From Octopus vulgaris (lineage: Eukaryota), in assembly GCA_951406725.2 (NCBI GenBank), contig OX597822.1:38812001-38876000 (forward strand): a stretch of DNA of 64,000 nt, given 5' to 3'. Below the pieces are notes generated by a model. That model made no database searches and was not told the DNA's origin. It was given only the letters and a program-made list of their open reading frames with translations. A program made the position numbers and the translations under genes. Positions 17,421-41,280 of the stretch are shown here, piece by piece. Each line of letters opens with the position of its first letter. Position 1 is the first letter of the stretch.

Positions 17421-17454
17421 CTGTAATATATGTGACAATTATTCGGTTGCCATA

Positions 17455-17513
17455 ATAAAACTCCGAGTTTTGGATGTCGGGGCGGAAATCTGCTCCAGCA
17501 TCTCATCAGTTAT
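17455..17513 (-). ncRNA. Degenerate hammerhead-like motif
   Basis: Minus strand reads auaa-CUGAUGA-GAUG-[22 nt]-CAUC-c-AAAAC-ucgga-GUU-uuau. Stems I and II pair, but GAAAC is mutated to AAAAC. Confidence 0.4.
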
Positions 17514-18283
17514 CAAGACAATCTAAAAGATGCTATGAAAGTGACCGTTAAACAAAGGGAAATTTCTATGTAATTGACCGTTATTAAGACAAAAGAGCTA
17601 TTAGAATGGTCATTAAATAAGGGGAAAAAATTGAAGAGGAGAAAGTAAAAAAAGTAAAAATGGTCATAGAAATTGCTTATGCGCACATATACACACATAC
17701 ACATGCGCGCATGCACACTCACGTGAAACACATACATGCACACACATACATATGCCTATGTATGCACATATATATGCAACCATACATATACATATCTGCA
17801 CACATGCATGCACACACACATGTGCACATACCTATACGTGCATAATTATATTCAAATACGCGTCTAAAATATGCACATGCTATATATGCATATGCCCACT
17901 CACACTTGAGTGAAACACATGCATGTACACCCACACACATATATACAAACATATATTGTAAAACCTTATTTGTAAAACAAGACCTTTGTGTGTGTGGGAG
18001 TATAATAGTTATGTGTCTAAACACAAACATAAATAGACACATCTCACAGTGAACTAAGGAGCCTATATGCAGTCATTTAATATGCTAGATATAGTAGCCA
18101 CACCTCCCTCAAATCACATCCTACTCTCTTAAAAAGAAAAGGAAGTTCATTTTATGTAGTAGTAGATGAATTGTGTCTGAAGTGGTGGTCTTAGTTGGAA
18201 TTGCTTTAATCATTAGTCTTGATCAAGGCTGGCTCAGGGTTAAGCAAGAACAGTGTAAGGAAAGCAAGTCAGACAATACTCAC

Positions 18284-18350
18284 AGTAAAGATTCAATATA
18301 TTTTTGGAAGGACAAACCAAACACTTACCTGAAATAAAGAAACAGAAAAT
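18284..18350 (-). other. Candidate recursive splice site (AG|GT) with 45-nt cryptic exon
   Basis: Minus strand attttctgtttctttatttCAG|GTAAGT (junction 18329/18328). No other AG lies within ~135 nt upstream. A second donor, tact|GTGAGT, is at 18284/18283. Confidence 0.65.
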
Positions 18351-18405
18351 TATTATAATGTTTTGTTATAAGTAGCAGTATTAGTAATAGCAGTAATATT
18401 ATTAT

Positions 18406-18444
<39 letters not shown>

Positions 18445-18760
18445 TAGAAATTAGCAAAATGTAGAACCTGTAGACTAAAACAATACCTGTTGTCATAGAT
18501 GCCCAGGGAATGCTAACAAGGAAACCCAAAAATGGCAGAAATTCAAAAGATAGTGCTCATGGGAACTGCCCATGTCCTGCGTAAAATACTGTCCATGTAA
18601 TTTCAAATGTTAAAACAAACTTATAATTTTCTTATGGTTCCTTAAACATTCTCTAGAACAACACTATGTGCAAAACCAAATATATGGCACCCTAGGCATA
18701 ACGCCAACATTGAACTTCTAACTTGTTGTCTCTTGATGTCTCTGGGTGAGCCTTGGATGA
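18445..18760 (+). mobile_element. R4/Dong-clade LINE 3' fragment next to (AAT)n
   Basis: Frameshifted translation EISKM*NL*TKTIPVVIDAQGM...EIQKIVLMGTAHVLRKILSM*, like the C-terminus of RLE-type LINEs. It abuts an (AAT)n tract, the known Dong target. Confidence 0.7.
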
Positions 18761-19659
18761 AAGGCAAAGTCAACATTAGCAGAATTTGAACTCAGAATGT
18801 AGCAATGGGTGAAATACTGCTGTGTTTCATCCAGCATGCTAACGATTCTGCCAGCTCACTGCCTATTAATAATAATAATAATAATAATAATCCTTTCTAC
18901 TAAATGCACAAGGCCTGAAATTTGTGGGGAGGGGGTAAATCAAGCCCAGTGTTTTGCTGTTACTTAATTTATTGACTCTGAAAGGATGAAAGGCAAAGTC
19001 GACCTCAGCGGAATTTGAACTCAGAACATAAAGATGGGATGAAATGCTCTGCTAATGATTCTGCTAGCTCGCTGCCTTGATGATGGCAATGATGACAATG
19101 ACGATGATAATTGTTTCTAACACAGGAACAAGGCCAGAAATTTTGAGGGGTGGGGCAGTTAATTATGTCAATGTCAAAACATAACTGGTATTTTATTTTA
19201 TAGGCCTTCAACCCCCAGAAGAATCGAAAACAAAATTAACCTCAGAGAGTATTGAACATAAAGAACTAGGACAAATACAGTAAGGCAGTTTTGTCCACTG
19301 CTTTAACAATTCTTATTTCTTTATTGCCCACAAGGGGCTAAACACAGAGGGGACAAACAAGGACAGACAAAGGGAATAAGTCGATTACATTAACCCCAGT
19401 GCACAACTGGTACTTAATTTATCGACCCCGAAAGGCTGAAAGGCAAAGTCAACCTCGGCAGAATTTGAACTCAGAACGTAATGGCAGGCGAAATACCGCT
19501 AAGCATTTCACCTGGCGTGCTTATGATTCTGCCAGCTCACTGCCTTGCTTTAACGATTCTGCTAAACTACTACCCTTATGATGATGAGGATAAACCTTTC
19601 TGCTATAGGCACAAGGTTTTTAAATTTAGGGTAAGTAGTCAGCATATATATTATATATA

Positions 19660-20133
19660 CTAGCTTAAAAGCTACACTATCGGGCAGATTTTAAGCTAGT
19701 ACCTAGCTTTTAAGCAACTGACCCTGACTGGGAAGATCTGCAAACAGATCTCTGACTTGTTTTGGAGAATTTGTTGCAATTGCTTTTTCCAGAGTCATAT
19801 TCCAATAATGATCATATTTGTAGCAACAAAAATCACATAAGAAAATCACTGAAAATAATCACTGGATTATGCCATTAATTTCGATTAATCCCAAAATTTA
19901 TTTCCAAGTTAGAAAAATTGTCGCAAAAAGTCATGTAAAACAAATTGCCGAAAACAATAGCAATTTTGGGAATACAAAACTTCAGGATTGCAGATCTGGA
20001 TTCCACCCAGAATGTTTTTAATTTACTCAAGGAACCAGCCTGATTCCAAAATGATATGATATGTTGGGCTGTGGCTTCTAGGAGTAAAGTTGAAAAAGTG
20101 TGACATATTGATATTCACATTTATAATATTAGA
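19660..20133 (-). mobile_element. Probable non-autonomous Helitron
   Basis: Minus 5' end A|TCTAATATTATAAATG and 3' end CTAG|T, with a decayed subterminal hairpin. Confidence 0.5.
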
Positions 20134-20539
20134 TTGTGCAAAAACGTCCTTCAGATTGCAATATTTGATAAAACAGAAAAAAACAAAACCTAATGTATTC
20201 TTTCTGTGTGAATGAGTACCAAATGAACCGTAGGCTGGTGGTTGGGGTCCCTTGCTTTATGTTATATATGTCAATAGAGTTTACTTATTCATGCTATGTG
20301 TATTTGTGTGGGCCCTAGTATACTCTACATAGTATATACCTGCAGTGTCTAGCAGGGCTGTGGGCTTATACCATGTAAGCTACATGGTATACTCAACATA
20401 AAACACATATGGTACTTGCAAGTGCCATTGTTTGTATGTTGTATCTAAGATTTGGGGAACTTGGTTATGGATTTGAACACATCTTTTTCTTTACTAGTTT
20501 GCATCTAGAATTTACATAATGCACCACATCCTCTTTTAT

Positions 20540-20710
20540 GTTAGCATTAGCTTAGCCAGAGCATGTGCCACCTGGGGCTACCCCTCCGTTTACCACCCCC
20601 AGACTCCACAAAAAATACATATTGCCTACAACAGACCCAAAAGTGTTGCCCCTTTAAAAGTGCTGCCTGGGGTGGATCACCCCTACCGCCCCACCCTAGC
20701 TATGCTAGTG
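20540..20710. mobile_element. Small TIR element (hAT-like MITE), copy 1
   Basis: Homologous to 41382-41539 (catattgcctac...agacccaaaagtgt...ggggtgga...gctatgctagt). Confidence 0.6.
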
Positions 20711-20714
20711 TACG

Positions 20715-20968
20715 TATTGGTGACAGCTATAATAGTTAGTATTGATGATGTAATAGTCAGTATTGGTGATAGCTAGAATAGTTAGTATTGATGGTTACAG
20801 TAGTTAGAATTGATGGTTACAGTAGTTAGTATCAACAGCTACATTAGTTAGAATTGGTGACGGCTATAGTAGTTAGAATTGGTGACAGCTATAGTAGTTA
20901 GAATTGGTGACAGCTATAGTAGTTAGTATCAATGGGCATAGCAGTTAGTATAGGTGATAGTTATAGTA
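20715..20968 (+). repeat. 25-bp minisatellite (ggtgacagctatagtagttagaatt)n
   Basis: Period 25 (ggtgac at 20881 and 20906); resumes at about 21675 after the MITE array. Confidence 0.8.
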
Positions 20969-21674
20969 TTAACCCTTTTGTTACCAACCCAGCTGAAACT
21001 GGCTCTGGCTCTCAGTACAAATGTCTTGTTTCCATAAGTTTTGAATTAAAATCTTCCACCAAACCTTTGTCACTATGTTCGTAACACTAGCTAAATGATA
21101 ACTAAGTTATTTTACTAAATTCTTTGTTATATGTAAAATTAATTGAAAGAAACACAGAACACCTCAACAGAAATATGGTAACAAAAGGGTTAACAACTTA
21201 TTAATTTAACCCTTTTGATACCAACCTGGCTGAAACTGCCTCTGGCTCTGTAGTACAAATGTCTTGTTTTCAAAAGTTTTGAATTAAAATCTTCCACCAA
21301 ACCTTAGTCACAATTTATGTTCCTGACACTAGCTGAATGACAGCTAAGTTATTTTACTAAATTCTTTGTTATATTTAAAATTAATTGAAGGAAACACTGA
21401 ACATCTCAACAGAAATATGGTAACAAAAGGGTTAACAAATGATTAATTTAACCCTTTCGATACCAACCCAGCTGAAACCAGCTCTGGCTCTGAGTACAAA
21501 TGTCTTGTTTTCATAAGTTCTGAATTGAAATCTTCCACCAAACCTTAGTCACAATTTATGTTCCTAACACTAGCTGAATGATAACTAAGTTATTTTACTA
21601 ATTCTTTGTTATATTTAAAGTAATTGAAAGAAACACAGAGTATCTCAAAATAAATACAGTAATGAAATGGTTAA
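20969..21674. mobile_element. Three tandem piggyBac-like MITEs (~220 bp each)
   Basis: TTAA-CCCTTTTG...CAAAAGGG-TTAA termini at 20973-21189, 21210-21431 and 21452-21670 (third copy's right end is decayed). Confidence 0.85.
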
Positions 21675-21914
21675 TATTCGTGTTAGCTATAGTAGTTAGC
21701 ATTCATGACAGCTATATGACTATAGTTGTTAGTATTATTGATTATAGTGCCCCTCCCCCACAGATTTAAGGCCTTGTGTCTATAGTAGAAAGGATTGTAG
21801 TGAATATTAGTGTCTATAAATAGTGAGTAGTAAAAAATATAGACTACATATGAAGAGAATGTTCTTGTGTTCTCCCATTAACTTTTAGTTTAATGTTGGA
21901 TAAAACAGTAGATA

Positions 21915-22075
21915 AATGTCCTGGAAAACATTGAAGTTTATTGTGCACTTGGATATAGTGGAGTACATTGTGTGCTGGATGCTTTAGAGTACATTGTGTA
22001 ATGGAAACAGAGTATATTGTGTACTGGAAAACATTAGAGTACACTATGTACCAGAAAACAGTGGAGTACATTGTA
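21915..22075 (+). repeat. Degenerate ~27-bp minisatellite (ctggaaaacattggagtacattgtgta)
   Basis: About 6 imperfect copies. Confidence 0.65.
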
Positions 22076-23660
22076 TTTTGGAATGGTTAATGAGGTGGAG
22101 GGTAGTAGGAAATAAATATAGTCCTTAACCTAATATTTTGGTTTGTAACTGTTGGCACATTGCCCTAAATGGTAGAATCATTATTCAATGATGCCTGCAA
22201 TTATATTCTATCTTTGCTAAAACTGGACAGACAGAGATAAGATAATTTAATGTCCATTCATATTGGTTTGGTCAGTCTGCTACTATTGCTATTAACTCAT
22301 TGCTTTGTTATCTTTCATAGAATTATTGTAGATAAGCAATTGGTCATTTCACTGCAAAATCCAGGTCATTCCTGTCTACTGCTGGTTCGGTCTGGAGATT
22401 TTGACCAACTGTTGACCTTCATAATGGCTTGCAAAGTAGAATAGACAAATGCCTAAATGTTAAAGATTGATTTGTTATTCAGAGGGGAGCTGTGTCCATA
22501 GCCTCTACTGACCCTCTTAGGCTGATCGGACTGATGATGAAATGGACGGGTGATGTTCTGTTTTAGCATATTTGTAGGTCAGTGTCTGCAGGGAAAATAG
22601 GGGTTGAGAGAGAGCAGAGTGTAGTAGTCATAGGGAGAAAGAGGATGGGACAACATGCTTAGTTTAGGATCTGTTATAGGAGTGGGCAGGTGGGGGGAGA
22701 TTGTGAAGGATGATGAGAAGAAAAGTATTTAGTTAGCTGGATCTTAGGAACTGAGACTGTATAGTAGTAGCAGTGGTGGTGATGGCGAAAATAGTAGTAG
22801 TAATAATAGTAGAAAACAGAAAAAAACAGCCTGTCTGATACAGTAGTTGTGTGTTGGTGAGTTAATCTTTGTTAATCAGTCATGTGGTCTTTTGGATATA
22901 ATCTAGGATGTGTGTGTGCATGTGTGTAGCAGAACTAGCCCAGATATGGTAATTGGTTCCAAAACATGCAACTCAATTTGAAAAACAAAGTAACATGAAA
23001 AAACACGAAAATTAATTAACATATCTATTTTAATAAATACTTTGTGTATATTTTCACATGTATTTAATTTGATTTTCCCTTCAATATTGGTGTTTACATG
23101 GGTTTTTTTCTAAAATAATTTTTATGCTTTTAAATATGTTCTTTTTGAGTCAGATAAATCAACTAAAATTAAGGTTTATTCTTTCCATTAATTTCTTTAA
23201 AAAAAAATCTAAAAAGATGCAATTCAAAACAATGTAAATTGAAGTATGCCTGTACTTCCTTGAAGTTTGAAGAGGATCAGTGATTGACCAGAGCTGAAGT
23301 ATCTTTAGTTTTGTGGTACTAAAAGCAGGTTTCCTACTCTTTGAAATTCAGTTTTAGCAACGGTGTATTCATCAGGTCATCATGAAGGATCATTCAATAA
23401 TAATAATAATAATAATCCTTTCTACTAAAGGTACAAGGCCTGAAATTTTGGCAGGAGAGGACTAGTCGATTACATTGACCCCAGTGAAACACTGGTACTT
23501 AATTTATCAATCCTGAAAGGATGAAAGGCAAAGTTGATCTCAACAGAATTTGAACCCAGAACATAAAGACAAATGAAATACACTAAGCATTTTGTCTGGT
23601 GTACTCGTCAATCACTATCATCATCATCACCATTTAACATCTGATCCGGCATGGGTTGGA

Positions 23661-24172
23661 TGTTAGTTAGTTAGTTAGTTAATTTGGCTCAAAAGCAAAT
23701 AGCAAGGCCATGTAGGGGGACATGGAGTTAAGTACAGGGTGGTGTTCATGTAAAGAGTTCAGGCCACTTGAGGTCAAGGGAGGCTTTGAACAAAGCGGTC
23801 GTCGGCATCTTCACCATCTCGTCTGGCAGCTTGTTCCACAGATCCGCAACCCGGACGGAGAAAGCTCCTCTCCTTCGATTGAGATGAAATCGTCGCAGGT
23901 AGAGCTTTTCGGAATGACCCCGCAGCCGACGCTCTGGAGCAGGAGTGAAGAACAGCTCTTTCGAGAGGTTACACTTTCCGCTTATGATGTTGTGGGCGAG
24001 AATGAGATCACCACGGCGGCGGCGTTTTCAAGAGAATAAAGGTCGAGCGTCCTCAGCCTTTCTTCGTAGGACAAATTTTTGAGACCATGAACCATGCGGG
24101 TAGCCAGCTTCTGGACTCTTTCGAGATGCTGTATGTCTTTGAGGAGATAAGGAGAAGAGGCTTGAATCCCAT
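23661..24172 (-). mobile_element. 5'-truncated CR1-like LINE 3' end with (TAAC)n tail, nested in SINE A
   Basis: Minus translation GIQASSPYLLKDIQHLERVQKLATRMVHGLKNLSYEERLRTLDLYSLE[fs]RRRRGDLILAHNII...AFSVRVADLWNKLP...FKASLD; CpG-rich. Confidence 0.9.
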
Positions 24173-24764
24173 GGTTTTGACAAGAGGTGATGAGCCAGAA
24201 GACTGCACCAAGCTCCACTGTCTTCTCTGACATGGTTTCTATGGCTGGATGCCCTTCCTAATATCATTGAAAGCTAAAATTTTTACCAATTAAAAAAAAA
24301 ATTTGGTTGTTTATAGAAGGAAGTATTTTTCTTTTTTTCTCTAGTATAACACAATATATATAGAACTATTTAGTTTCTGTAAAACATCTGATGCCATGTA
24401 TATCTGCTTATGTTTAATCTGAGACTGAACTCATATTTATTGCAAGCAGAAGTTCAATGCTCTAATCCACTAAGCTATGCATTTATATGACATCCCATCT
24501 ATGACAAACCAAACATTAAACCTTATACTCTCTTTTACTTGTTTCAGTCATTTGACTGTGGCCATGCTGGAGCACCGCCTTTAGTCGAGCAAATCAACCA
24601 CAGGACTTATTCTTTGTAAGCCTAGTACTTATTCTATTGGTCTCTTTTTGCCGAACCGCTAAGTTACGGGGGACGTAAACACATCAGCATCGGTTGTCAA
24701 GTGATGTTGGGGGACAAACACAGACACACAAACATATACACACACATGTACATATATATATATG

Positions 24765-24890
24765 AACTGAGTGAACTGGAGCAACATGAAATAAAGTGAA
24801 ATAAACACACAGCCCAGCCCGGTAAATGAACTCACTATCTCATGATTGTGAGCCCAACACTCTAACCACTGAGCTATGCGCCTTCGCACT
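24765..24890 (-). mobile_element. SINE family E head (tRNA-derived)
   Basis: Minus gaaggcgcatagctcagtggttagagtgttgggctcacaatcatgag...; related to 56878 and 59535. Confidence 0.65.
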
Positions 24891-27439
24891 ACTCTACTAC
24901 TCCATCATCAATATGCCACACCAATACCACTAGACTACTCCATCACCACCGCCACCACCACTACACACTAAATTCCAGTGAAACTGTAGGAATTTTTATG
25001 CAATAGTTTTGCCAGTTAGAAATAGCAGCCAAATCGCAACCTACCATTTTGATAAAAAATATAGGACTATATCATCCCTGAAATACAAAATAGATGGGAC
25101 GGTCATAGATGGATTGTATTTGATCATAAATCTACTTCATTAGGAAAGCTCTGGGGTTAAACAACAATAGTATTCTAGGTTGATGAGACAGCAAATGAGC
25201 TTCTATGGTGGTCACTCAGCCTGCTAGAAATAACAGCCAAATCTCCTTCAAATCACACATCACTAACTTAAAAAGGGAAGTACATATCAATAAGTGTAGC
25301 CCTAGATATACAGTACCTAAAACTAAGATGGGATGGTTGCAGGTTGGACACATTTGACCCAAGGATAGCTGGATCAGGACTAAATTGAAGCTAAACAATA
25401 ACACCGATTGTAAGACGATAATATAATATATAATTACGGAGCTGTTGTTAATTACTTCTGTAATTAAAACAACAGTTCTGTTCAGGTACTGACACTGACC
25501 ATGGAGAGGACTTCTGATTTACTGTTTTCTTAAGAGTACCACTTACATTTTGACCTTTCATGTGTCTGTGAGTTGTTGAACTCTAAGATAACAGAAAGGT
25601 GTTCCAACTATAATTATTTCAGTTTATTTTTACTTTTCCCCCTCATTTTTCTGTTGCTGTTTCTAACATCTAATGTAGCCCCCTTCTAGGGTATCTTCCA
25701 ATTTTTTTTTTTTTTTTTTTAGTGCTCAGTGCACCACATTGCCCAGTTTAATATCACCACTTGGCCCTTGGGCACCTTTAGCAAAGTTCATTTGTTGCAA
25801 GCATCTAGACCAGCCTCTTGTTTAGGGACATCTGTGACCTATTCATGTACCATCCCCTTTTATATTTCCCTTGGCCAATGTTACCTCACCTCAAACATCA
25901 GAGATCTTCTCTCCAACCACAAGCCCATACACAGGGCTGTTTCAGCAGCATTTTAGGCCCCTGTCTTAGATTTACCATGGATTAGCTTGTAACTTTGGGA
26001 TTTTGATGATGTGATTGTTTATGATTAGAATGAGATCGTAGGGTAGGTATGAGAGGCCATACCTGGCTAGTTTGAACATTGTGCCGGCTGACTGGTCCCG
26101 TGCTGGTGGCACGTAAAAAGCACCATTCAAGCATGGCCGATGCCAGTACCACCTCTATGGCCCTCATGCCAGTGACATGTAAAAAGCACCCACTACACTC
26201 CTGGAGTGGTTGGTGTTAAAAAGGACATCTAGCTGTAGAAACTTTACCAGATCGGATTGGAGCCTGGTGCAGCCTTCTGGCTTGCCAGCCCCCAGTCAGT
26301 TGAACGACAATGATGATGATGATGACGACTATTTAGGTCAGATATGGCTGGTTTAATTGCTAAAGGGTTAAAGGTTTGAATATCGTAGACCAGAGGAAAA
26401 CAAGATGATGGTAATGAGTTTTAGAGATCAGTTTGAAGGAAGAAATTACTAGAATAAAAGGACCTATGACTAAATGGAAGCTCAACAGAGAAAAGATGAG
26501 CCTGGACAACTGCTTCATTGGAATCACTGTGTTTCTACAAGAATCAAGCACAACATCTGCAGATCAGTGATGTTATCCAATGTGGCCATGTTTGATTTTG
26601 TAGACAGGGCATGATTTGAGGAAGATTTGGCTACTGTTTCTAATAGCTCACGCACCCAGAGAGAGGCACACACATTAGCTCACATGTGTACCTTTGACAG
26701 TGTGGTTGGTGATATATACATTTCTTTTATATGTGTGGGAAGTGGTAAGAAAGAGAGAGAGAGAGAGAAAGAAAGAGAGAGTATGTGTGTGTTTCCAAGT
26801 TGGTAGATATTTGACAGCAAGGTGTGCAGAAGGGCTGTAGTGTAGGAGTGGACAGGGTAGTGTGTATGCGCAGGTGAGGATCAGTGGACAAGGAGGACAT
26901 CCAGTTGTAAAAGATAATACTGCAATAATATCTACTTAATCCATGCCAGGATAGAAAAACAGACATGAAACAAACAAATGAACATACATACAAACACACA
27001 CACATGCATGTACTGACAAACAGATAAATAGATAGATAGACAGATGTTGATATATACGTATATATATATCTGTAAGCTGGATATATATATGTGTGCGTGT
27101 GTGTGTGTGTATATATATTATATTAAACATATATATTATATATATATATTATATTAAACAATATTTTGTATACACAAAAGTGTTTCTTGAGATGAAATTG
27201 GAGAAAAGATCTTTTGTCCGACATTTATAAACCCCAACCGCACCCCCCCACACACCACACACCTTGTGTCTCCTTATTAAAACAATCAGTCTTAACTTTC
27301 CTCTCTCAGAAGTATTTTATTTCTCAATCCATTCATGTTCGTGATCTGATTCATGGTTTCAATATAACACATGATTCTCTACATACATACATAATTATAT
27401 ATACATATATATGTGTGTGTGTGTGTGTATATATATATG

Positions 27440-27498
<59 letters not shown>

Positions 27499-27507
27499 TA
27501 TTTGTGA

Positions 27508-27540
<33 letters not shown>

Positions 27541-27556
27541 TATGTATGTATGTATG

Positions 27557-27596
<40 letters not shown>

Positions 27597-27605
27597 ATCT
27601 GTGAG

Positions 27606-27636
<31 letters not shown>

Positions 27637-27637
27637 A

Positions 27638-27668
<31 letters not shown>

Positions 27669-27964
27669 ACACACACACACACAGATAGATGTGAGGGTGA
27701 TAGAGGAGGAAAGTGTGAGAGAAGTAGACAAATAGCTGGGCAGACAAACATCCAGACAAATACAGAAACAGATGAAAACAGACAGAGATAGAAAGACATA
27801 TGGAGAGAGATAACGAGATATACAACAGATATGATAGATAGGTAGAAAGTCAGAAAAACAAACGGTTGGATATATGGATATATGGAGAGATAAGCAGAGA
27901 GAAGACAAGACAGACATACTGTGAAAGGTGTATGACTCTGTATGCCTTTGTGCATGTGTGTGTA

Positions 27965-28007
<43 letters not shown>

Positions 28008-28269
28008 TGCTCCACTGTTACCACTCTAATAATGAATCTGGCCTTAAAGCAGTCCATAGACAAAACCAACATAAATATGTCCAGTTGAATGACAATGGCC
28101 AAATAAATATATCAGTGTAGCAGTTTGTTAGTATGGTCTGTGAACAGTGGAATAATAGAGATAGGTATTAAATTATAGACAAAGGACAGAAGGAATTATG
28201 GGATAGCTTGGATAATTTGTAATGAAAAACAGACATACAACCATGCAAACATTAAATTCATATTATATA

Positions 28270-29153
28270 TAGGTTGCGATGGGTAAATTGTCACCATTTT
28301 ATATTTTTACTTTCACACACGCACATTGTTTGTTTTTGATTTTGTCAACTACACAGTATAGTAGGGTCAGTTGGGCACTGTCTGTAAGAAGAACAGCATC
28401 ATGACACAATCCACACTGTCACAAATTTGGAAATGACATGATGTACTGCTTGGCATCCATACCGGAAGCTCCAATACCAACATTTCAGAGTGTTTGGGTG
28501 TCAATCTGAGGATATGTACTGGATGTTTGATGAAAATCAAGCATCCAGTCAACATCATGATGTTTGGAGTAATCACTAGTGATGGTGACGTTATGCCTCC
28601 ATTCATCTTCCCACACAGCCCCAGACTCAACACAGAGGCCTACATCAAGTGCCTGGAGGTGGTAGTGCTGCCCTGTGTCAAGAAGGTGGCTGCTGGAACA
28701 CCCTATGTCTGGCAACAGGATTCTGCACCATGCCACACTAGCAGGAGAACCCAGTAATGGCTGTCAGACAATTTCTGTGACCACATCACCCCTAACATCT
28801 GGCCATCTAACTCACCAGACTGCAACTTCCTTGATTATTACGTGTGGGGCACAGTTGAGTAAGAGGCCAACAAAACTCCTTGTAACACCAAAGATGAACT
28901 GAAGGCAAGGATTATGGCAGCATTCACCAACTTAAATAAGGAGACCGCCCAGAAAAGTTGTAGGAGACTCCGAAGTCATCTGGAAGCTGTAATTGAAGCC
29001 AATGACGATTTTATTGAATAAATTTACTATTTCGTATTTCCAGATATTATTTATGTAATTTTGTTAAATACATCTGCTATATAACATCAATGAGATGTTA
29101 GTGTTATTTTCATTTTTGCATAATTTAGATGACAGTTTATTCACTGCACCCTG
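28270..29153 (+). mobile_element. Internally deleted Tc1/mariner DD37D (maT/Bmmar1-like) transposon
   Basis: Imperfect TIRs (taggttgcgatgggtaaattgtca / tgacagtttattcactgcaccctg) with TA TSD. Pseudo-ORF ...WQQDSAPCH...WPSNSPDCNFLDYYVW has 37 residues between the second and third catalytic D, and in-frame stops. Confidence 0.9.
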
Positions 29154-29209
<56 letters not shown>

Positions 29210-32200
29210 ATTCGACAACTAAGGAGGAGTTATCTTCTTTTGGTATTTTGTCTTGTACTTATCTCTGTGCATTACATATTTTTCACTCGTTGGTGATATC
29301 CTGTACTTAATGTGTATTTTTAATTATATATCTTGGGCCCAGGTTTGCCCTAGAATCAAACTAGCATTAAATTTTGTAAACATTATTTAATAAAGAATAC
29401 AATACATAGTATTTACTTTGTTTTTGTAAACCTCACTCATACAAACAATATCCTATACATACACATACACATACATATTTATATACATATATATTTCCTT
29501 AAATATGCAACTATGCTCAAGTTTTATCTTTTTTATATTCTTTATATTTTTTATTAGTGTTTTACAAATGGTTTGGAAAAGTATTTCTTAAATCCATGAC
29601 ATTTCTAGACCTTCACAGCCTCATTATCAGGAATTGAAGCGAATATATTTGTATTGCTTCTTATACACTGATTACGTGCAAGTCAGCTCTTTTGATCATT
29701 AGCACCATGATTTGTTTGTTGTGGATATGGACATAAATCCATATCTTAACATTTGCATCAGTTCTTTTGATCATTAGCACCATGCATCAGCAGTCACATG
29801 TTGATTTGTTTGTTGTGGATATGGACATAAATCTATATCTAACATGTTCTCCATGTCAGCATAGAAAACAGGCGTTGGATGATTGGACAGAATCTGATGT
29901 GCTGAAGGACTGTGTCATGCTCAGAAATTCACTTTGCATGGTTTATACAGCTGGACACCGTTTCTAATGCCAACCACTTAACAGTTTGTACTGGGTACTT
30001 TCCTTGTGACACCAGCACAAGTGAGGTCACCATTCATTATCTTGTAAGACTAAAGATCTACTGAGTAGGGCTACAGTACAGAAGGAGGTAACTTTATGCT
30101 AGATGACAAGAATGTGGAAAATTTACAAAAGCAGGAAAGAAATGAAGTGCACAACTGGATGTGTAATGTTAATCTTCATGATTGATAGAACACGAGTGAA
30201 TTGAGGGAAAAACTGACTATAAGAGGAATCATGTGTAGTGTAGTAGAGAGAAGACTCAGAAGGACAGTTACCTAATTTCCATGATGTAAGTGACCAAAAA
30301 CACAACAATCCTCTGAACAGGATGCTGGTCCATTGCAAGGTTTTGAGGGAGGGGACAAGTACTTTGTTTTATTGGTCCTCGAAAGAGATGAAAGACAAAG
30401 TTGACCTTGGCAGAATTTGAACTCAGAACTTAGAGAGCTGGAAGAAATGCTGCTAAGCATTTTGTCCAATGTGCTAACGATTCGGCCAGCTCACTGCCTT
30501 AAATTGATATCAAATATAGGTTAATTATGTAAACAAATATACACACATACATTCATACACTCACCAGGATACACAGACATATAAGTACATATAAACACAC
30601 TTAAATACACAGATTTATATACACATACAAGCATTGCGGGGAGGGGCGGGCGAGAAGGTGAATGACAAGGTAGTAAGTAACGAGTAGGCAGGTACAAAAA
30701 AAGGGAGGAGTGTTTCTTTGTGTGTGTATGTGTGAGTTTGTGCGTATGTGTGCATGTGTGTGTGTGTGCACATGTGTGCGTGTGTGAGTTTGTGTATAAT
30801 TGTGTATGCGTGTGTGTGTGTTGTGTGAGCGGAGGGATGATGTATTAAACATGACTTCACAATAGAAATATCTTTGTTTTAATCATTTCCAACCCTATCC
30901 AAGGGAAATCTCTGAGATATTACACCCCACCCGCTGTGTTATATCACAGAGTGGAAGGTGTGAATGACTTTGGGATAGATGTTGTCTATAGGTGGAGGAT
31001 AATAATAATTTCATTGATCATAAAAGAGAATGACTCAACCGTTGGATGTAGTGTGTTGATGACAACAACAACAACATCTAAAACACACATGGTCAGAACA
31101 ACAACAATAATATAGTAATGAGTTCAAGCGAAAGAGAAGTTATACAGCCACTCAGCCTTCTAAAAATAACAGCTAAATCATCATGATCATCATCATCATT
31201 GTCACCATTTAATGTTGTATTTTTTTCCATGGATTAAAATTACACCCTGCTACCATAATAAATTATTTCATGGATCTGCTGGATTAGGGCAAACTTTGGG
31301 ATAAAAAAGACAATAACATTCTGCAAGGCATGGCTTTCCCAACCATGCGGCCTGGAGTTCAGTCCCATTGCATCGTACCTTGGGCAAGTGTCTTCTACTA
31401 TAGCCCTGGGCCGATCAAAGCCTTGTGAATGGATTTGGAGAGAGAAGCTGTGTGAAAGCCCACTGTATGTGTGTGTGTCCGTCCATTTCCAGTCTCAGTG
31501 ATAAACATGTCTGGCTATAGGGAAATAATGCTTTGCTTGGAAATAGGTGAGGGTTGGCAACAAGAAAGGCATCAAGCCATAAAAAATCTGCCTCAATAAA
31601 TTCTATCCAACCCATGCAAGCATGGAAAAGCAGATATTAAATGATGGTGATGATGATGATGATTTATGCTTGAGCTAATGGGAGAGAAAGGGCCACAATA
31701 TAGACTTTTGACCTGCTAAAAACACCAACCAAATCATCTTCCAACCATATAAAAGAGTGTTTTAAAAAGAATGACATTGCAAAATGTAAGCCTGAAGTAT
31801 ATTATATCTGACTAGATGGTCACAGCTGGAATATTTTTAGTCTTAAGTCTGTCGGATTTGGAAATGACCTAGGACTAAATAACAGTCAAAATTTATGATC
31901 ATTGCAGGGTCAGCCAAAAGACAATTCAATGTTGTTAAATTACTGAGAGGGGCAGTAGGGGTGGGGCAAAGCAGCAAGCTGGCAGAATCGTTAGCACACC
32001 GGGCGAATTACTTAGCAGTATTTCATCTGTCTTTATGTTCTGAGTTCAAATTCCACCAAGGTCAACATTGCCTTTCATCCTTTCGGGTTGATAAATTAAG
32101 TACCGGAGTTGATAAATTAAGTACAGGAGTCGATCTAATTGACTGGCCCCCTCCCCCAAAACTTTTGGGCCTTGTGCCTAAAGTAGAAAAAATATTACTG

Positions 32201-32346
32201 AGTGGGGTTTAACTTGTTAGTTGTGGTTTGGGACTGTACAATGTTTGCTGGGGCTTGTATCTATGACTAGCTATTAACATTATCACATTGCTGAAGACTT
32301 TGTCTTTAAATTGATAATGTGACTTTCTTGATAACACTATTTTTGC

Positions 32347-32396
<50 letters not shown>

Positions 32397-32915
32397 GGGG
32401 CCTTGAAGAATCAAGGCCTGTCACGAAATATTTCAGTAAAGTTCCTATTCTAATGAATTCTTTATCTTTTGCTTGCTTTCATCTTAGGACTGTGGCCATG
32501 CCGGGGCACTGCCTCGAAGGGTTTAGTTGGACAAATCGACCATTGCACTATTTTTTTTATATGCCTGAGACTCAATTTGTTGGTCTCTTTTGCTGAACTG
32601 CTATGTTTTGGGAATGTAAACACACCAACACCAGATGCCAAGCTGTGGTGGGGGACAAACAGGCACAAAGACACACAGATAAATATAAATGTGTGTGTGT
32701 GTGTGTACAAAGTATGGTAGTTTAGATCACGGGTAATCTAAGCGATTAGGTATGCTAGGTAAGTGCTGTAACAGATTACTAGGGCTCCAAGGTTATAGCT
32801 GAGATGGTAGTTATGGAGCCATTGCAGATTTCCGATGCAGCGGATACATAATTGTTAAAGAGGACAAAAAACAGTAAGGCAAAGCAAGGCAAACATCTCA
32901 AATACGACTTGCGAT

Positions 32916-33086
32916 ATGGACATATGGCGTGGGCTACTAACCCCAAAATTCCGAGTTCGATTCCAGGCAAGAAGAAGAAGAAGAAGAAGAAGAAGAAGAA
33001 GAAGAAGAAGAAGAAGAAGAAGAAGAAGAAGAAGAAGAAGAAGAAGAAGAAGAAGAAGAAGAAGAAGAAGAAGAAGCAACAACAGC

Positions 33087-33150
<64 letters not shown>

Positions 33151-33153
33151 GTG

Positions 33154-33194
<41 letters not shown>

Positions 33195-33341
33195 AATAAC
33201 ATCGAAAAATACCTTAGGAATGAGAACCCAGGTTCGAAATTTCCCCAAGACACCTGATGAAAGCTGGAGGGGTATATCAGCTGAAACATTGTGGTAACAA
33301 CAAACGAGATGAGGGCAAATATCCAGCAAATGTAAATAATG
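32916..33341 (+). mobile_element. tRNA-headed hammerhead-containing element with expanded (AAG)n(AAC)n
   Basis: Head tggcgtgggctactaacccc...gagttcgattcc; core gacac-CTGATGA-A-AGCTG...CAGCT-GAAAC-ATT-gtggt at 33249-33295; 13-bp TSD-like repeat tacgacttg(c/a)gat at 32903 and 33342. Confidence 0.8.
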
Positions 33342-33441
33342 TACGACTTGAGATGTTTGCCTTGCCTTAAAATGTTTGTTGTCCTCTAGAAAAATTATAT
33401 ATATCTATGTGTGTGTGTGTGTGTATGTATGTATCTATGTA

Positions 33442-33504
<63 letters not shown>

Positions 33505-34595
33505 CAGGCTTCTTTCAGTTTCCTTCAACCAGATCTACTTACAAGGCTTTGGTTGGCCTGAGGCTATAGTAGAAGACACTTGCCCAAGGTGCCATGCAGT
33601 GGAACTGAACCTAGAACCACGTGGTTAGGAAGCAAGTTTCTTACCACACAGCTAAGCCTGTAGTTGCTTTCAATATTACATGCTTTAATGCATTAAAAAC
33701 CTCTTTCCTTGCATATGTGCTGTTGAATTGGAGTGCATCTGACACCCATGCATCGTCTATGCCCTAGAATTCTTTTTTTTTTGTTTTTGTTTTTTGCATT
33801 GAATTCTTTCCAAATCTGTATCTTTTACTTGTTTCACTCATAAGAGCATGGCCATGCTGGGTCACCACCTCCAAGAATGTTTAGGCAAATGAATCAACCC
33901 CAGGACTTATTTTACTTTTTTTTGTAAACTTGATACTTATTCTATCAGTCTCTTTTACCGAACCACTAAGTTATGGCAATGTAAACCCACCAATAGTAAC
34001 TAACAAATGACGGTGACAGACAAACACACACACAATGAGCTTCTTTCAGTTTCCATCAACCAAATCCACTCACAAGGCTTTGGTTGGTCTGAGGTTATAA
34101 TGGAAAACACCTAAGGTGCCATGCAATGGGACTGAACCTAGAACCATGTGGTTGGGAAGCAAGCTTCTTACCACAGTTATGCATGCACCTATACATATGA
34201 AATATTTCTCCTTATTCTAAGGAGTCTATTTCAATATTAATTTTACCATCATGTTGATTTTAAATTGCTTTACTGTTAATTCAAGTTGTTTTTGTTAAGA
34301 TTTCTTACAACATGGAGGGATTCTATGGACTAAGAAAAGTTTGTTTTTTTTATTCTTCTGACACATTTTTCAGCTCTTTTCTGTATTGTATATATTCCAG
34401 ACAATGCAAAAAAGATTTCAATATATATACTGAAGATTCTATTCTACTTTCTTGAATATATTCATGTGTTTGTGTTTGTATGCATGATTTTAGTCTATCA
34501 GATTTGGTTCAATAAAAAACTAGAGTGAAATAAACAGACTATTGCCAAAAATATCACACAAACAAATCTAAACACCATGTTTACAGCAATGCAAC

Positions 34596-34660
<65 letters not shown>

Positions 34661-35468
34661 GCTCTTAGCTTAGTTTTTCCTTGGGGCTGGCCAGATTGGA
34701 GCAATCTCAAGTATAATCAGCTGAAATTGCAAAGATAACCTGGTACTCGACTGAGGAAAGAAAACTTTGAATGATCCGTCCTTGTTTTCTTTGTATTGTC
34801 TATCTGGATGTTTTGTTATCTCATTTTTGTATTACCTAACTGTATGGATGTTTTGCGTTCTTGTCCCATTTTGTATTTTATATATATATATTCATACTGA
34901 CTGGCCTTCATGCTGGTAGCATGTAAAAGCACCCACTACACTCTCAGAGTGGTTGGCATTAGGAAGGGCATCAAGCTGTAGAAACTCTGCCAGATCAGAT
35001 TAGAGCCTGGTGCAGACATCTGGTTTGCCAGTCTTCAGTCAAATCGCCCATGCCAGCATGGAAAGCGGATGTTAAACGATGATGATGATATATATATATA
35101 TATATATATGTGCATGAGTGTGTCTGTATTGGTGTGGCTGTGTGGTAGGAAACTTGCTTCCCAACCACAATGTTCTAGGTTCAGTCCCACTGCATTGCAC
35201 CTTGAGCAAGCTTCTTGTACTACAACCTCGGGCCGACCAAAGCCTTGTGAGTGGATTTCGTGAACGGAAACTGAAAGAAGCCCGTCATATATATGTTTGT
35301 TCCCCACCACCATCACTTGACAACCGATATTGGTGTGTTTAAGTGCCCGTAACTTAGCGGTTCGGCAAAAGAGACCAATCGAATAAGTACTAGGTTTACA
35401 AAGAATAAGTCCTGGGGTTGATTTGTTCAACTAATGGCCACAGTCAAATGACTGAAACAAGTAAAAGA

Positions 35469-35499
<31 letters not shown>

Positions 35500-38400
35500 G
35501 GGGGAGAATGAGAGAGAGATGTGTGTGGGCATATGTATATTAAAAGACTAACACGTCATATTTGTATATCCACACACACACACACACATACACACACACA
35601 CACACGTCTCAAGTGCCCCAATCCAAGCCCTCTTCTCGATGAGTAATAGTATGTCTGCCCTCTACACTTGACTACATCCTGTACCCCAGATCAATAAACC
35701 ACAGCATTAGAACCAGGGAACCAAAGAACCAGGGTGGGTGTTACACTCAGACTCGACTAAAAGCACTAAAAGTTTGAGTGTTGCTCAATGTTCGTTAAAC
35801 AGTGTTTGGAGGCAGGACTATACTTGAATGAGTGACTCATCCTTGCAGAATACACAAATACATATAAATATATAAACAGCCACTGCATGTAAGCGGAGTA
35901 GAGGAGAAGGATGGGGATGTATGGAGTTGGTGGAAGTAGTGGGTGCAAGGGGACAAATAGTGGGGTGACTGGGTGTGATGGTTATGGTGGGTGGGTGAAT
36001 GAGTGCCCGTCGCGGTTGCAGTGTTTGGATGTTGGGTGAAGAATAAAAGTACTTCTGCTGATTCACCTCAAGCCACACCTCAATGCAGCCTATCAAATAG
36101 CACTTCACACACACACACACACACACACCGACCAACCTATCTGCCTATATACACCACATAAAAACATCAACACACCATGCCACGCTAGCCAGCCAGCCAA
36201 CCAACCAACCAGCCACCAGGAGGCCTCTATGTGTACGTGGGATGCTCCACCTGCCAAATCTTCTCCAAATCACACCTTTGTGTCTTAAAAAAACACTATC
36301 ACAAAGACACACACCCGCACAAATATAACATATACACACATATAAATACACATACATACACTCATGCATATATGCATACATACACACACACACATATATA
36401 TGCACATGCATACACTTGTATATATATATACACACACATACATATACACACATGTGTACATATGTATACACACACATACATATACACACATGTGTACACA
36501 TACACTTGTACATATGAATACACATATATGCAGACAAATGTAGATATACACATACACACATATATATGCATACATATATACATACTACATGTACTAATTG
36601 AAGTTATATACATGTACATGCACACACATTATTCATTGGTGGGGTGTGTTAAAAAAAAACCTACTTCAGGTAATGCAGTCATAAACACACAACGCCTGAA
36701 CAAAAGATGGGATGGTCACAGCTGGAATGTCTTTGATGATAAGCTCTGCTGGATCAGAACTGACCTAGATCTAAACAATAACACAACATTGCCAAAAGAT
36801 TATTTCTGGCTTTGGCGGAAAGCACACACACACACACACACAGAGGGCACTACCCCTACTAGTCCCTAATTTCTTTTTTAATATATGCAGAGGTTAAGCA
36901 GGCTTGAGTCATGTTTACGTTTATATGAGTGGCTTGTTCAGGGAATCGAATTTGAGACTGTGTAATTGAATTATCTGCTTAACTAACAAACATGGTCACC
37001 TCCACCGCCATCCCCGTCTCACCGAAGGCTCCCTCCACCGTTCATTCACCACCTCTCACCGCCTCTCATCATTGGTGCTTTAGCAGGGACTGAAAGACAA
37101 AGTTTTATGGGCACACATTTGTACACACATACACACACACATACAAACATATTGTGCAAACATACACTATATACACACACACACACATAAACAGAATATA
37201 ATGCAAGGAGGGATTGAGAGAGAGAGAGAATGTTATGTGTTTGTGCATGCTTGCATTTATGCATGTGGAGAGAGAGGGAGTGTGTGTGTGTGTATGTGTG
37301 TTTTAGCATGCATGCATGCATATATGTGTGTATGTAGAGGAAGAAGGAGAGATAGAACGCGTAAGGGAGAGAGAGAAAGAGGCAGAAGAAAGATAGAGGG
37401 AGGAGAGAGAGAGATTAAGAAAGAAAGGAGAGAAAGAAAGAAGGAAAGAAAGAAAGAAAGAAAGAAGGAAAGAAAGAAAGACAGTTGTATGTCATCCCTG
37501 GAGAAAGTGAATCAGCCTCTCATCAACGTTGCTTGACCTGTCGGTTCAAACCTGTTAACCTCACAACAGGCAGGCATCTTCTTAAGTGGCAGGGATACAG
37601 AAGAGGACCCAATACTGACAGTGATGTGTGTGAAGCAAAAACAACCCGTATAAACAAACACAGACACATGACTGTGTGGGATTTCATGCTCACCTACACC
37701 ACATTCTTCTTGATTCAAATGCAGCTTCGTTATGCTGGAGAGAATCAAATGTAAAATGATCTCTATTTTTCTCACAAAACTATATAAAAATGATTAATCA
37801 CATTTAAGAGAGAGCCCACAGACATAAGATGTAATGGAATGGGTTCAGTTGCTTAAATCAAACTTAGGAGATGACTGGAAATATATAAGGGAAGCTGGCA
37901 GAATTGTTAGCATACTGGACAAAATGCTTTGCGATGTTTCGTCTGTCTTTACGTTCTCAGTTCAAATTCCGTTGACTTTACTTTGTATCTTTTCAAGGTC
38001 GATAAAATAAGTACCAGTTGAACACTGGGGTCGATGTAATTGACTCACCCCCCCCCCCTACGAATTCGATGGCCTGGTGTCAAAATTTGAAACTAATATA
38101 TTTGATTTAATAAGGATATTTTAGTATTATCTATTAAATTACAGGTATAAGTTTAACATTAAAGCATGTTAGGATAACGAATATTTAATACGTATGGAGT
38201 GTTCTAATTATTTGGGTTACGAAATAGTGTAATTAGAATTAGTTATTAGTTAAGTTCAATCGAATTTGTTTTGTTTTGGAAAGACTAGAATATAAAGCTT
38301 TCACTTTTATATCAATAACTATGGAAGACTGGTGGGAATATTATCTGCATGGACTTCAAGTGCTAGGTCACTATTTAGTTAGATAATTTAGGAGTTAATT

Positions 38401-38975
38401 ATAGGTTTACTTATTGAATTAATTTACAGATGCTGTTTTTGTACATAGGGTAAATGTGTTTCTTTGTTATAGGTTAATTAATGATGTTAGTGTTTAATTC
38501 TTCCTAGAATTAAGATTGAATGAATGTAGTGATATCTATGGTATGTTTGTTTCCAAACAGCACTTATTTTAGTGTTGTTCACACTGCCGGATTGAATGGT
38601 ACTGCCCGGGTGTCAAAACCATAGTGATATCCATAAGGCAGCTGATGATGGAGGTATGTTGGATGTTGGCATGGCTGTTATTGTATGTGCAGAACAGTTT
38701 TATAAGACATCCATTTGATATTAAGTGTACCAAAAAGTAATGTATTTTCAAAGTAAGTAGTCTGACGTCATAATAGAAATAGTTTACAAGCTAATAAAAG
38801 GTCCCTTTGCAATCAACTCATCAGCATAGAGTTTACGACCAAACATTAACGTGGACATATGCTGTGCGTGTGTATGTTCTATCTGACTGGCCAGTGAAGA
38901 TGAGGACTTTAGTGAGCTCTATTCAGCATTGCTTGCTTTACAAATTTCATAATGGCAACAATGCAAGCGAAAACA

Positions 38976-39194
38976 TACAAGAAGGTGCTGAAAAGTTCCT
39001 GGCTTTAAGGGTATCACGAAAGGCCTGGTTGGAGGCCCCACCTTCAGTGTTCTTTCACAGGGCTTAGAAAAACTGAAGGACTGCTGCAATAATTGTGTCA
39101 ATCTGAGAGGAGAATATGTTGAATAAGACCATAATTAACTGATCCTCCTGTATTTTCTTTTACCTAAAGTTAGGAACTTTTCAGAACCTCCTCA
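38976..39194 (+). mobile_element. Mariner-derived MITE
   Basis: TIRs gtgctgaaaagttcctggcttta / taaagttaggaacttttcagaac; internal GLEKLKDCCNNCVNLRGEYVE* resembles a mariner C-terminus. Confidence 0.75.
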
Positions 39195-39214
39195 AATGCA
39201 TTGTCTATCCTGAT

Positions 39215-39632
39215 TGTATGAGTATTCGGAAATGCCAAAAGTGGTTTACCAAATTTAAAAAATGGTGATTTCAATCTTTTGGATGGGTATTGATTAGGAA
39301 GACCAACTGTTCTCATTAACAATGCCATAAAAACAGCAACTGAAGAGGATCCCCATCAAAGTATTGGGGAAGTAACCCAAGAGCATAATAAACTGTGGTC
39401 CATTGTACAAAATCATCTCAAGCTGATTAAAAAGTCTATAGTGAAGGAAAGTTTGAATCTCATGAGTTGACCATCAAGAATAATGCAGTGTGTTCAACAA
39501 GATAACCCAAGAAAAGATAAATTCATTTAATTGCGAAGCTCTATCTCACCCTTCCTATTCATCAGATTTAGGACCGTCAGATTTTCACTTATTTGGGTCA
39601 ATTGAACACTTTACCAGTAGAAAAACATTCAG
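39215..39632 (+). pseudogene. Mariner transposase fragments
   Basis: CQKWFTKFK.GDFNL and HPSYSSDLGPSDFHLF (YSPDLAPSDFHLF motif). Confidence 0.8.
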
Positions 39633-40197
39633 AATCATGATCACGCGCAGGCATGTCTGTGTGTTAAGTAGCTTGTCTGTGTGGTAAGTACAGAAGTGGC
39701 TGTATGGTAAGTAGCTTGCTTACTGCTTACATGCATACACTATTGTTAGTGTTGTTCTTTGCACTAAGGAAGTTGCATGCTATTTTGTAGCTGTGAATTA
39801 TTAACAAAAAGAGCTCAACTGTAAGGTAAAGCTTTTGTTTTTTGGGTTCACTGAGGGTTTGGTGTGTAATATTTTTTCCCAGGCAAGAAGTCCTCACTGG
39901 ATTCTAGACATTTGTCAGCTTGCAGTAGAGCATTATTGTTTCACCTCCAAAAAAGTTGTAAAATTTGTAGAATTTTACCAAAAATTGTGGATTTTACCAA
40001 AAAGTTGTGAAATTCGTGGAATTGTACTAATATGTGGAGCTCTGTTCCTGCTGGTGGATTACCCTAGGCCAGGAGTACTGTCGGCTGGAATTGTGCTTTA
40101 TTGAATTCTGCTGTTTTGAACTGTCTTCCCTCTTTCTTCTTTTTTGTTTTTTCTTCTTTTTTTGAACTTGTGTTTGACTTTTTTTGGACTCAAAAAC

Positions 40198-40920
40198 ATG
40201 GCAAAGAAAGCTGATAAGGTGTCGGAGTGGGAAATTGCCCCACCCAAACAGTGAATAAAAAGTCTTGAGGAGAGGACGGTGGTGCTGCGGATGTACTCCA
40301 AGTTGCTCGACACCATTGCCCTCTTCAAAAAGATTGATATAGAGAGAGAGTTGACAGAATAAATGCCAACTATAAAATTTATTTGCAGGAGTGTCAAATA
40401 TGCGACGGTGTGGTTGCTATTTGACACCCCTGAAGAGGCTCACAATTTTGCAAGTCAGCCCTTAGAGGGCGAAGAGATATTGTTTCTTTCCATGTATTGT
40501 GGGAAATAGTTGACAAGGGCTTGGGTCTGCAGGTTGCCACACGGGATAGAACCTGAGTGGATAGAAGACACTATCTGCTGGGGTCTGGGTGGCAGTGGAG
40601 CCAAGGTCCTCAATGTCAAAATTTTGCATGCGGCTAATTGGGTGGGGTCAAAAGCGGTTTTGACCCTGTGAACCCAATCAGCCAAGAACCTGGTGTTTTC
40701 AGATTTTCTTAAAATAGCCAGTTCTAGGTATCCGGTGATTCTTGCGGGACACCTTCTCCACCCTAGTGTCACCTGTGCCTGGAACCAGGCAACATTAAAA
40801 AAAACTGTCCCCAGGACCAAGGTAAGGTCCTGGAACAGTAAGTGATGGAAAAACCTCCACCTCCTCTTTCGGAGGGAGAGATGGAGGCAGTGAAGACCCC
40901 ACCCCGCAAAAGGGGAATGT
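40198..40920 (+). pseudogene. Decayed ORF1/Gag-like protein of an L1/Tx1-like retroelement
   Basis: Long coding-like frame MAKKADKVSEWEIAPPKQ*IKSLEERTVVLRMYSK...LLFDTPEEA...RLPHGIEPEWIE with stops, then a frameshifted CHLCLEPGNIKKNC (CX2CX4[H>N]X4C knuckle, 40767-40808). Confidence 0.65.
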
Positions 40921-41178
40921 CTTGCAGTATTTCTTCTGGCTCATTACATTCCGAGTTCAAATCTCACTGAGATCGACTTTGCCTTCCATCTCTCTAGGTT
41001 GATAAAATAAAGAACCAGTTGAGTGCCAGGGTAGATGACATTGACTAATCCCCGACCCCTAAAATTGCCGGCCTTGTGCCAGAATTAGAAACAGTTATTC
41101 ACAGCATTTACATCACCATGATTCGCAGTTACATAATTGTCAACATTCACAACAACAACAACAAAGAGAAGTTCTTAC

Positions 41179-41280
41179 CTGGATATGAAGACAGGTGCTC
41201 GGTCAATACATGAAAAGGTAAATATCCCAAAATATCATAACAGCAAGGCTTACCTGTAATAGAAAGATAAATAGTATCAA
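41179..41280 (-). other. Candidate recursive splice site (AG|GT) with 75-nt cryptic exon
   Basis: Minus strand ttgatactatttatctttctattaCAG|GTAAGC (junction 41254/41253), with a ~70-nt AG-free zone upstream. A second strong donor, CAG|GTAAGA, is at 41179/41178. Confidence 0.65.

Follow-up and report, generated by a model that had tools for sequence, protein, structure and literature searches.

How cells remove very long introns is an open question, as is whether recursive splicing is an ancestral trait or evolved independently in flies and in vertebrates. Both are raised by a 64,000-nt stretch of the Octopus vulgaris genome (assembly GCA_951406725.2, contig OX597822.1, here C9, positions 38812001-38876000; the window), in which an earlier note, made from the sequence alone, had pointed to two minus-strand sites where a 3' splice site is fused directly to a 5' splice site. 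Position 1 of the window is C9:38812001, and positions outside it are given as window coordinates extended outward. The window lies in the 5' region of the minus-strand octopus gene for RAPH1 (lamellipodin). We consider it probable that a 75-nt segment behind the first site is spliced into mature RNA, while the second site acts as a likely recursive-splicing ratchet point in the 143-kb intron that follows.

On re-reading, the coordinates, strand and motifs of the two sites proved exact: with the slash marking the splice junction, site 1 reads CAG/GTAAGC at 41254/41253 and site 2 CAG/GTAAGT at 18329/18328. The long AG-free zones (71 and 137 nt, respectively) and the second donors were found as well, a strong CAG/GTAAGA at +75 for site 1 and a weak ACT/GTGAGT at +45 for site 2. 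YAG/GTRAG occurs seven times in the window, three times on the plus and four times on the minus strand. The best tracts among these matches are those of sites 1 and 2, with 15 and 16 pyrimidines among the 20 upstream bases; the remaining five include the +75 donor of site 1. Their description as the best 3' splice sites holds within this set, but not beyond it: 44 YAG tracts in the window, site 2 among them, have at least 16 pyrimidines in 20. The unusual feature of both sites is their fusion to a donor, not the pyrimidine content of the acceptor.

Splice sites were scored with a hand-set weight matrix of untrained frequencies, and a strong fused site was defined as an acceptor of at least 9 joined to a donor of at least 7. 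The window contains two such sites on the minus strand and none on the plus strand, bearing out the claim that no other site there is of this quality. In 664 kb scanned, three were found on the minus and none on the plus strand, where independence predicts 0.08 and 0.02, and when the window was simulated 60 times with a Markov-4 model, 59 sequences had no strong fused site and one had a single site. At both sites, the direct fusion of acceptor to donor goes beyond chance. Neither belongs to a repeat. Among the fetched loci, each matched only itself across the site, with no match between the two, and the site-1 region had one full and one weak partial match in the genome; both are unique sequence.

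The unseen minus-strand gene that had been postulated to span the window is RAPH1, identified by its exons and by contig joins. In the 710 kb of flanks that we examined, RAPH1 coding exons lie downstream of the window, all on the minus strand and collinear, from -101809 to -394305. The last of them (835 aa) is 100% identical to an Octopus sinensis RAPH1 isoform, the PH exon matches RAPH1 in PDB (E 2.6e-16), and the RA and PH families were both matched, the RA-domain match lying at -379752; exon-like frames at -101809 and -232998 are RAPH1 exons too. The gene therefore combines the RA and PH domains of the MRL family with sequence identity to RAPH1. Its conserved start-codon exon (the ATG exon) is located 102 kb past the window edge, and the gene spans more than 435 kb. 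Annotated Octopus isoforms have at least four alternative N-terminal coding exons, at -95090, -139549, -208491 and -303420. The MGR- and MTGSN- isoforms provide other upstream partners for the ATG exon. The MTGSN- exon maps to -95090; since the MGR- exon could lie at any of five places, including one downstream of the window, the MGR isoforms are no proof of site 1 skipping. CpG depletion extends past -300 kb on one side and to about +177 kb on the other, and 27 of the 28 16-kb bins as far as +148 kb have more A than T on the plus strand, which suggests that the transcription unit begins well upstream of the window.

To follow RAPH1 splicing, we compared public contigs of four runs (24 are listed) with 244 bases around the ATG exon. 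The RNA nature of these runs was guessed; we read them as spliced RNA because their 143-kb and 131-kb joins fall exactly at exon edges. Contigs of three of the four runs, X3, X4 and X13, which come from three studies, cover the ATG exon exactly. Their downstream sequence continues 131 kb away, in the next coding exon, and their upstream sequence at window positions 41213-41184, which belong to the 3' part of the 75-nt segment; all that run X1 yielded on the ATG exon were repeat pieces of 31 nt. The junction between the 75-nt segment and the ATG exon establishes a RAPH1 intron of 142,987 nt, which starts at the donor at 41178 and ends at C9:38710192.

The join at 41178 shows that this donor is used in mature RNA, so that the 75-nt segment is not the hidden cryptic exon that the earlier note had supposed; use in three of four runs is the routine inclusion that the note itself had named as refuting its reading, here for site 1. 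Furthermore, the two sites do not represent successive steps within a single intron: the intron that contains site 2 begins at the end of the exon headed by site 1. What survives of the proposed stepwise removal of a giant intron is a 142,987-nt intron with site 2 in sense inside it and with a 45-nt segment that is skipped: routine inclusion of the latter would have spoken against the idea as well, but the segment is absent from all three spliced contigs. In run X4, one letter of the 75-nt exon differs near 41194, C to T on the transcribed strand; this is likely an allele, not adenosine-to-inosine editing.

Site 1 is most likely the start of an expressed 5'-untranslated region (UTR) exon of the recursive-splicing (RS) type, its 5' boundary at 41253 being predicted from sequence. 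The 3' end of this exon is included in mRNA and, if the boundary is indeed 41253, the first bases of the exon form a partial 5' splice site. It is non-coding, with stops in frame with the main open reading frame (ORF), and carries an 11-codon upstream ORF at 41238-41203. We also considered the 75- and 45-nt segments as coding micro-exons. Each has one open frame, but neither peptide occurs in any of the ten mapped RAPH1 N-termini, full-length or alternative, and the stops within the 75-nt exon speak against this as well. The second donor of site 1 scores 7.5 and the fused donor 7.5 with CAG, or 6.5 with the best candidate upstream exon; the second is at least as strong as the fused one, which would explain why the exon is kept. 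As the donor at 41178 is used in three of four runs, we do not class site 1 as an intronic ratchet point: its segment is present in mature mRNA and its second donor is not the weaker one. The intron upstream of it is a predicted one. Recursive skipping of the exon may occur in some isoforms.

Alternatively, site 1 might be no acceptor, with 41253 being an internal position of a longer first exon whose start lies 150-270 nt upstream, a reading compatible with our explanation of site 2. The contigs of X3, X4 and X13 would leave room for it, extending 220, 259 and 343 nt past the join with 30 letters visible; the DNA upstream belongs to an old repeat (about 78% identity) and would not interrupt a contig, and no upstream exon was identified. 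Nevertheless, the 71-nt AG-free zone, the pyrimidine tract and an acceptor score of 9.4 argue for a genuine 3' splice site, there is no CpG-rich, promoter-like stretch near 41.5 kb, and CpG depletion and the minus-strand excess of T over A persist for more than 100 kb upstream, making a longer first exon unlikely.

Site 2 differs from site 1 in its donors and in its fate. It is fused beyond chance, it lies in sense inside a very long intron, its downstream cryptic donor is weaker than the fused one by the hand-set matrix, and its cryptic exon is absent from mRNA in three of three spliced contigs, with rare inclusion possible; with these four features of sequence and mRNA, it is likely to be a ratchet point. 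The same intron contains a third site, 91 kb past site 2 at C9:38739425 (-72575), minus strand. Its CAG/GTAAGT is the strongest fused site of the locus and is followed by two identical second donors, TTG/GTGAGT, at +62 and +116. The acceptors of site 2 and the third site score 10.6 and 11.2, compared to 3.3-10.7 for seven real RAPH1 acceptors; their fused donors score 9.0 each and their second donors 1.9 and 4.2. Both sites are in sense within the 142,987-nt intron, and both are skipped in the contigs.

The anatomy of these sites suggests that the intron is removed stepwise. As the polymerase proceeds, splicing would link the CAG end of the 75-nt exon to the acceptor at 18328, whose definition would be aided by the weak donor 45 nt downstream. 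This join would re-create CAG/GTAAGT, and with a score of 9.0 the new donor would out-compete the weak one (1.9). The cycle would repeat at the third site, 91 kb on (9.0 versus 4.2), and the intron would leave as pieces of 22,850, 90,903 and 29,234 nt, with no trace in the mRNA.

We searched the whole genome with a strict pattern of ten pyrimidines, any base and CAG/GTAAGT (Y10-N-CAG/GTAAGT). It has 117 matches, compared to 21 for the reversed pattern and 45 when GTTGAA, of the same composition, replaces GTAAGT. The three GTAAGV hexamers together have 86 matches, and AAG or GAG in place of CAG together 59; across 144 GTBBNN hexamers, 7500 matches give a mean of 52, which GTAAGT exceeds 2.2-fold. 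Among 100 of the 117 sites, adjacent ones no more than 500 kb apart form 13 same-strand pairs and one opposite-strand pair (P 0.0009; 2.35 pairs expected), the same count being 1:1 for GTAAGV and 1:0 for GTTGAA. GTAAGV sites do not cluster, so that the signal seen across the genome is specific to GTAAGT and does not extend to site 1, with its GTAAGC. A second donor often follows the first 30 of the 117 sites: GTRAG occurs at 20-155 nt in 12 of 30, compared to 82 of 450 flanking windows (P 0.006), and between +20 and +150 the top-scoring donor reaches 2.05, versus 0.17 in the flanks (P 0.001). No excess of GTRAG is seen for the first 30 of the 45 controls (5 of 30, P 0.67). In the same 30 strict sites, the median AG-free zone is 46 nt, versus 28, four have an open frame of at least 40 aa, and one pair is repeat-derived.

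One same-strand pair, at C13:4468681 and 4550882 on the plus strand, consists of two sites 82 kb apart, both reading CAG/GTAAGTACG and followed by a CAG/GTAGG donor at +46 and +50, which corresponds to the anatomy of 46- and 50-nt cryptic exons. The pair is located in CpG-undepleted DNA, and no further strong fused site lies between the two. Three strict sites also occur within 126 kb on the minus strand of C18 (15812668-15938509), two of them sharing an identical 20-mer.

The motif count that the earlier note had proposed for sense and antisense strands was thus approached by proxies that require no gene annotation. For enrichment the proxies are positive (117 matches versus 21-45, neighbours at 13:1, excess of second donors), and similar sites are likely to be numerous in the octopus genome; the strand skew outside RAPH1 is weak. 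Since neither window site fits the strict pattern, the true number of fused sites is larger, and as a rough estimate the octopus may have hundreds to a few thousand ratchet points. That it employs fly-style recursive splicing on this scale, for introns of vertebrate size, is a view towards which we lean slightly.

Several observations weigh against stepwise removal or against its generality. No exon joined to 41253 or 18328 was seen in the contigs, which were anchored only at the ATG exon, and one-step exon-to-exon splicing yields an identical mature junction. The spacing of 23, 91 and 29 kb is uneven, compared to segments of roughly 9-15 kb in flies, as given in the available part of PMC6110457. 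The next intron of RAPH1, 131 kb long and spliced in the same contigs, and a 76-kb intron of the gene have no strong fused site (best 5.0/5.8), so that giant introns here can do without such sites. The whole-genome enrichment is only 2-5-fold, against roughly 20-fold for sense over antisense in flies by a different measure (PMC2773006, available part). As a strand proxy, an excess of T over A outside +/-200 nt was found for 20 of 30 sites (P 0.049), compared to 16 of 30 controls, a weak effect, and sense orientation is established for the RAPH1 sites only. Tandem duplication as the origin of same-strand clusters was ruled out for the C13 pair, the sole pair checked. Finally, all splice scores rest on the hand-set, untrained matrix.

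Some of these points would also fit ordinary alternative 5'-UTR cassette exons that start with GTAAG, the 45-nt one being included in unsampled tissues and otherwise skipped in one step. The 75-nt segment does act as an exon, RAPH1 is rich in alternative 5' exons, and GT is the commonest dinucleotide at exon starts according to the available part of PMC6224609; moreover, the comparison covered four of 24 listed runs, and contigs lose rare forms. However, three to four exons starting with GTAAG in a single gene are improbable by chance (0.08 expected), the donor of the 45-nt segment is poor (1.9) and follows a fused donor that is perfect, and the full hexamer GTAAGT is enriched genome-wide over GTAAGV and GTTGAA. 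We therefore doubt that all sites are cassette exons.

A further possibility is that the sites are under selection but remain uncut, as splicing decoys or landing pads for U1/U2 that stabilise the long transcript or suppress premature polyadenylation. Decoy exons have reportedly been found in vertebrates, no intermediates occur among the contigs anchored at the ATG exon, and both the uneven spacing and the 131-kb RAPH1 intron without strong fused sites would be in keeping with such a role. Neither a decoy nor a U1 pad, however, needs a fusion with zero nucleotides in between, and the preference for CAG before GTAAGT (117 versus 59 for AAG and GAG) and the second donor downstream are as in proven ratchet points; we regard uncut sites as distinctly improbable. 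Least probable are chance or repeat-derived motifs in AT-rich, microsatellite-rich DNA: although the window was chosen for these sites, its background is heterogeneous and controls of 21-52 per hexamer imply that a fifth to two fifths of the 117 matches may be chance, the RAPH1 sites are unique sequence where 0.02-0.08 are expected, a third strong site lies outside the selected window on the same strand with none on the other, and one site heads a transcribed exon.

Among known systems, site 2 and C9:38739425 match the anatomy of Drosophila intronic ratchet points with cryptic RS-exons (kuz, Bx, Ubx-RP, Ten-m). As described in the available parts of PMC8605326, PMC6110457, PMC2773006 and PMC6224609, these are fused (Y)nCAG/GTAAGT sites, in sense, in long, 5'-located introns and several per gene, with a weaker second donor less than 100 nt downstream and the intervening segment missing from mRNA; donor competition determines cryptic-exon skipping (PMC8605326). 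The octopus differs in being a cephalopod mollusc, in segments of 23-91 kb rather than about 9-15 kb, and in that its sites are known from sequence and mature joins. Site 1 can be likened to expressed RS-exons, such as Ubx mI/mII and msi in Drosophila and annotated RS-exons in human. According to the accessible text of PMC8605326 and PMC6224609, these are short, start with a partial donor, have a strong donor of their own and appear in mRNA, the human ones being kept by the exon junction complex. In contrast to these, the exon of site 1 belongs to a non-coding 5' UTR with an upstream ORF, and the use of its acceptor is predicted.

Vertebrate RS-sites of the CADM2 type reportedly reside in long first introns (Sibley 2015). 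The octopus sites likewise concern an intron of more than 100 kb near the 5' end, with donor competition apparently deciding inclusion, as it does in vertebrates (PMC5126111, available part). For human, the available parts of PMC8605326 and PMC6224609 report only about 9-10 fully suppressed RS-sites, whereas the octopus pattern count points to fly-like abundance. The accessible text of a computational survey names insects, sea urchin and vertebrates and does not mention molluscs (PMC2773006), and that of a study linking the longest octopus genes to neural tissue does not mention recursive splicing (PMC7222433). Our literature search for recursive splicing in octopus, cephalopods and molluscs, which did not extend to subscription journals or bioRxiv supplements, returned nothing beyond passing mentions. 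Recursive splicing is a known mechanism, and molluscs are likely a new clade for it, so that the gain would be one of evolutionary breadth and not of new chemistry. If our reading is correct, RAPH1 would be the first lophotrochozoan case, extending cryptic-exon ratchet points to each of the three bilaterian branches, and would present a silent ratchet point beside an expressed RS-exon, the two distinguished by the strength of their second donors. The genome-wide signature and one mapped gene provide exact junctions for existing total-RNA data. The features of the window are collected in Table 1.

Table 1. Splicing features of RAPH1 in the window (window positions)
Feature	Position	Strand	Basis
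First 41 kb of the 142,987-nt RAPH1 intron	1..41178	-	Exon-exon join; intron end 101,808 bases beyond window position 0
Site 2, weak second donor ACT/GTGAGT	18278..18283	-	Score 1.9 versus 9.0 for the fused donor
Site 2, 45-nt cryptic exon	18284..18328	-	Missing from all 3 spliced contigs
Site 2, fused donor GTAAGT, likely ratchet point	18323..18328	-	Re-created CAG/GTAAGT scores 9.0
Site 2, acceptor: 137-nt AG-free zone, pyrimidine tract, CAG	18329..18467	-	Sequence
Used 5' splice site CAG/GTAAGA, opens the 142,987-nt intron	41173..41178	-	Contig join
75-nt RAPH1 5'-UTR exon starting with donor motif GTAAGC	41179..41253	-	3' end (41213-41179) joined to the ATG exon in X3, X4 and X13
Site 1, putative acceptor: 71-nt AG-free zone, pyrimidine tract, branch-point-like TATTGAT at -29, CAG	41254..41326	-	Sequence
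Probable upstream RAPH1 intron	41254..64000	-	CpG depletion and strand skew

Towards the 5' end of the gene, the first exon of RAPH1 was not located among the candidates inspected at +115 kb, +161 kb and +177 kb. The candidate at +115 kb ends ATGGGGAG and would be compatible with the MGR isoforms; a protein search with its frame gave no match. At about +160.4 to +161.9 kb, an inverted-repeat element with ATTTGCAT-type octamer motifs adjoins a CpG-rich unique stretch with a plus-strand donor, possibly a promoter region. At about +177 kb, the observed/expected ratio of CpG changes abruptly from about 0.3 (depleted) to about 0.85 (undepleted), which likely marks the edge of a gene-body methylation domain. 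Within the depleted domain, a very CpG-rich block at about +140 kb was rejected as a promoter: it consists of a GCGCAT-based satellite (about +140.4 to +141.1 kb) beside a fragment of a long interspersed nuclear element.

Two further minus-strand fused motifs were noted near the gene. A weaker fourth fused site, CAG/GTAAGC with a TACTAAT branch-like motif at -37, lies 5.4 kb past the window end at C9:38881360 (+69360), with no second donor within 400 nt; CAG/GTAAGT with a modest tract occurs at C9:38413890 (-398110), 3.8 kb beyond the RAPH1 stop codon. Exon-like frames at +225965, +231098 and +244919 on the plus strand and +322282 on the minus strand, two of them paralogous, resemble C-type lectin and PAN/apple domains; the one frame tested had no Pfam match. 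The next minus-strand gene upstream is that for enkurin, with four coding exons from +256901 to +269200. Within the window, positions 20969-21674 comprise three 242-bp tandem units of 89% identity, preceded by an array with a 47-bp period.

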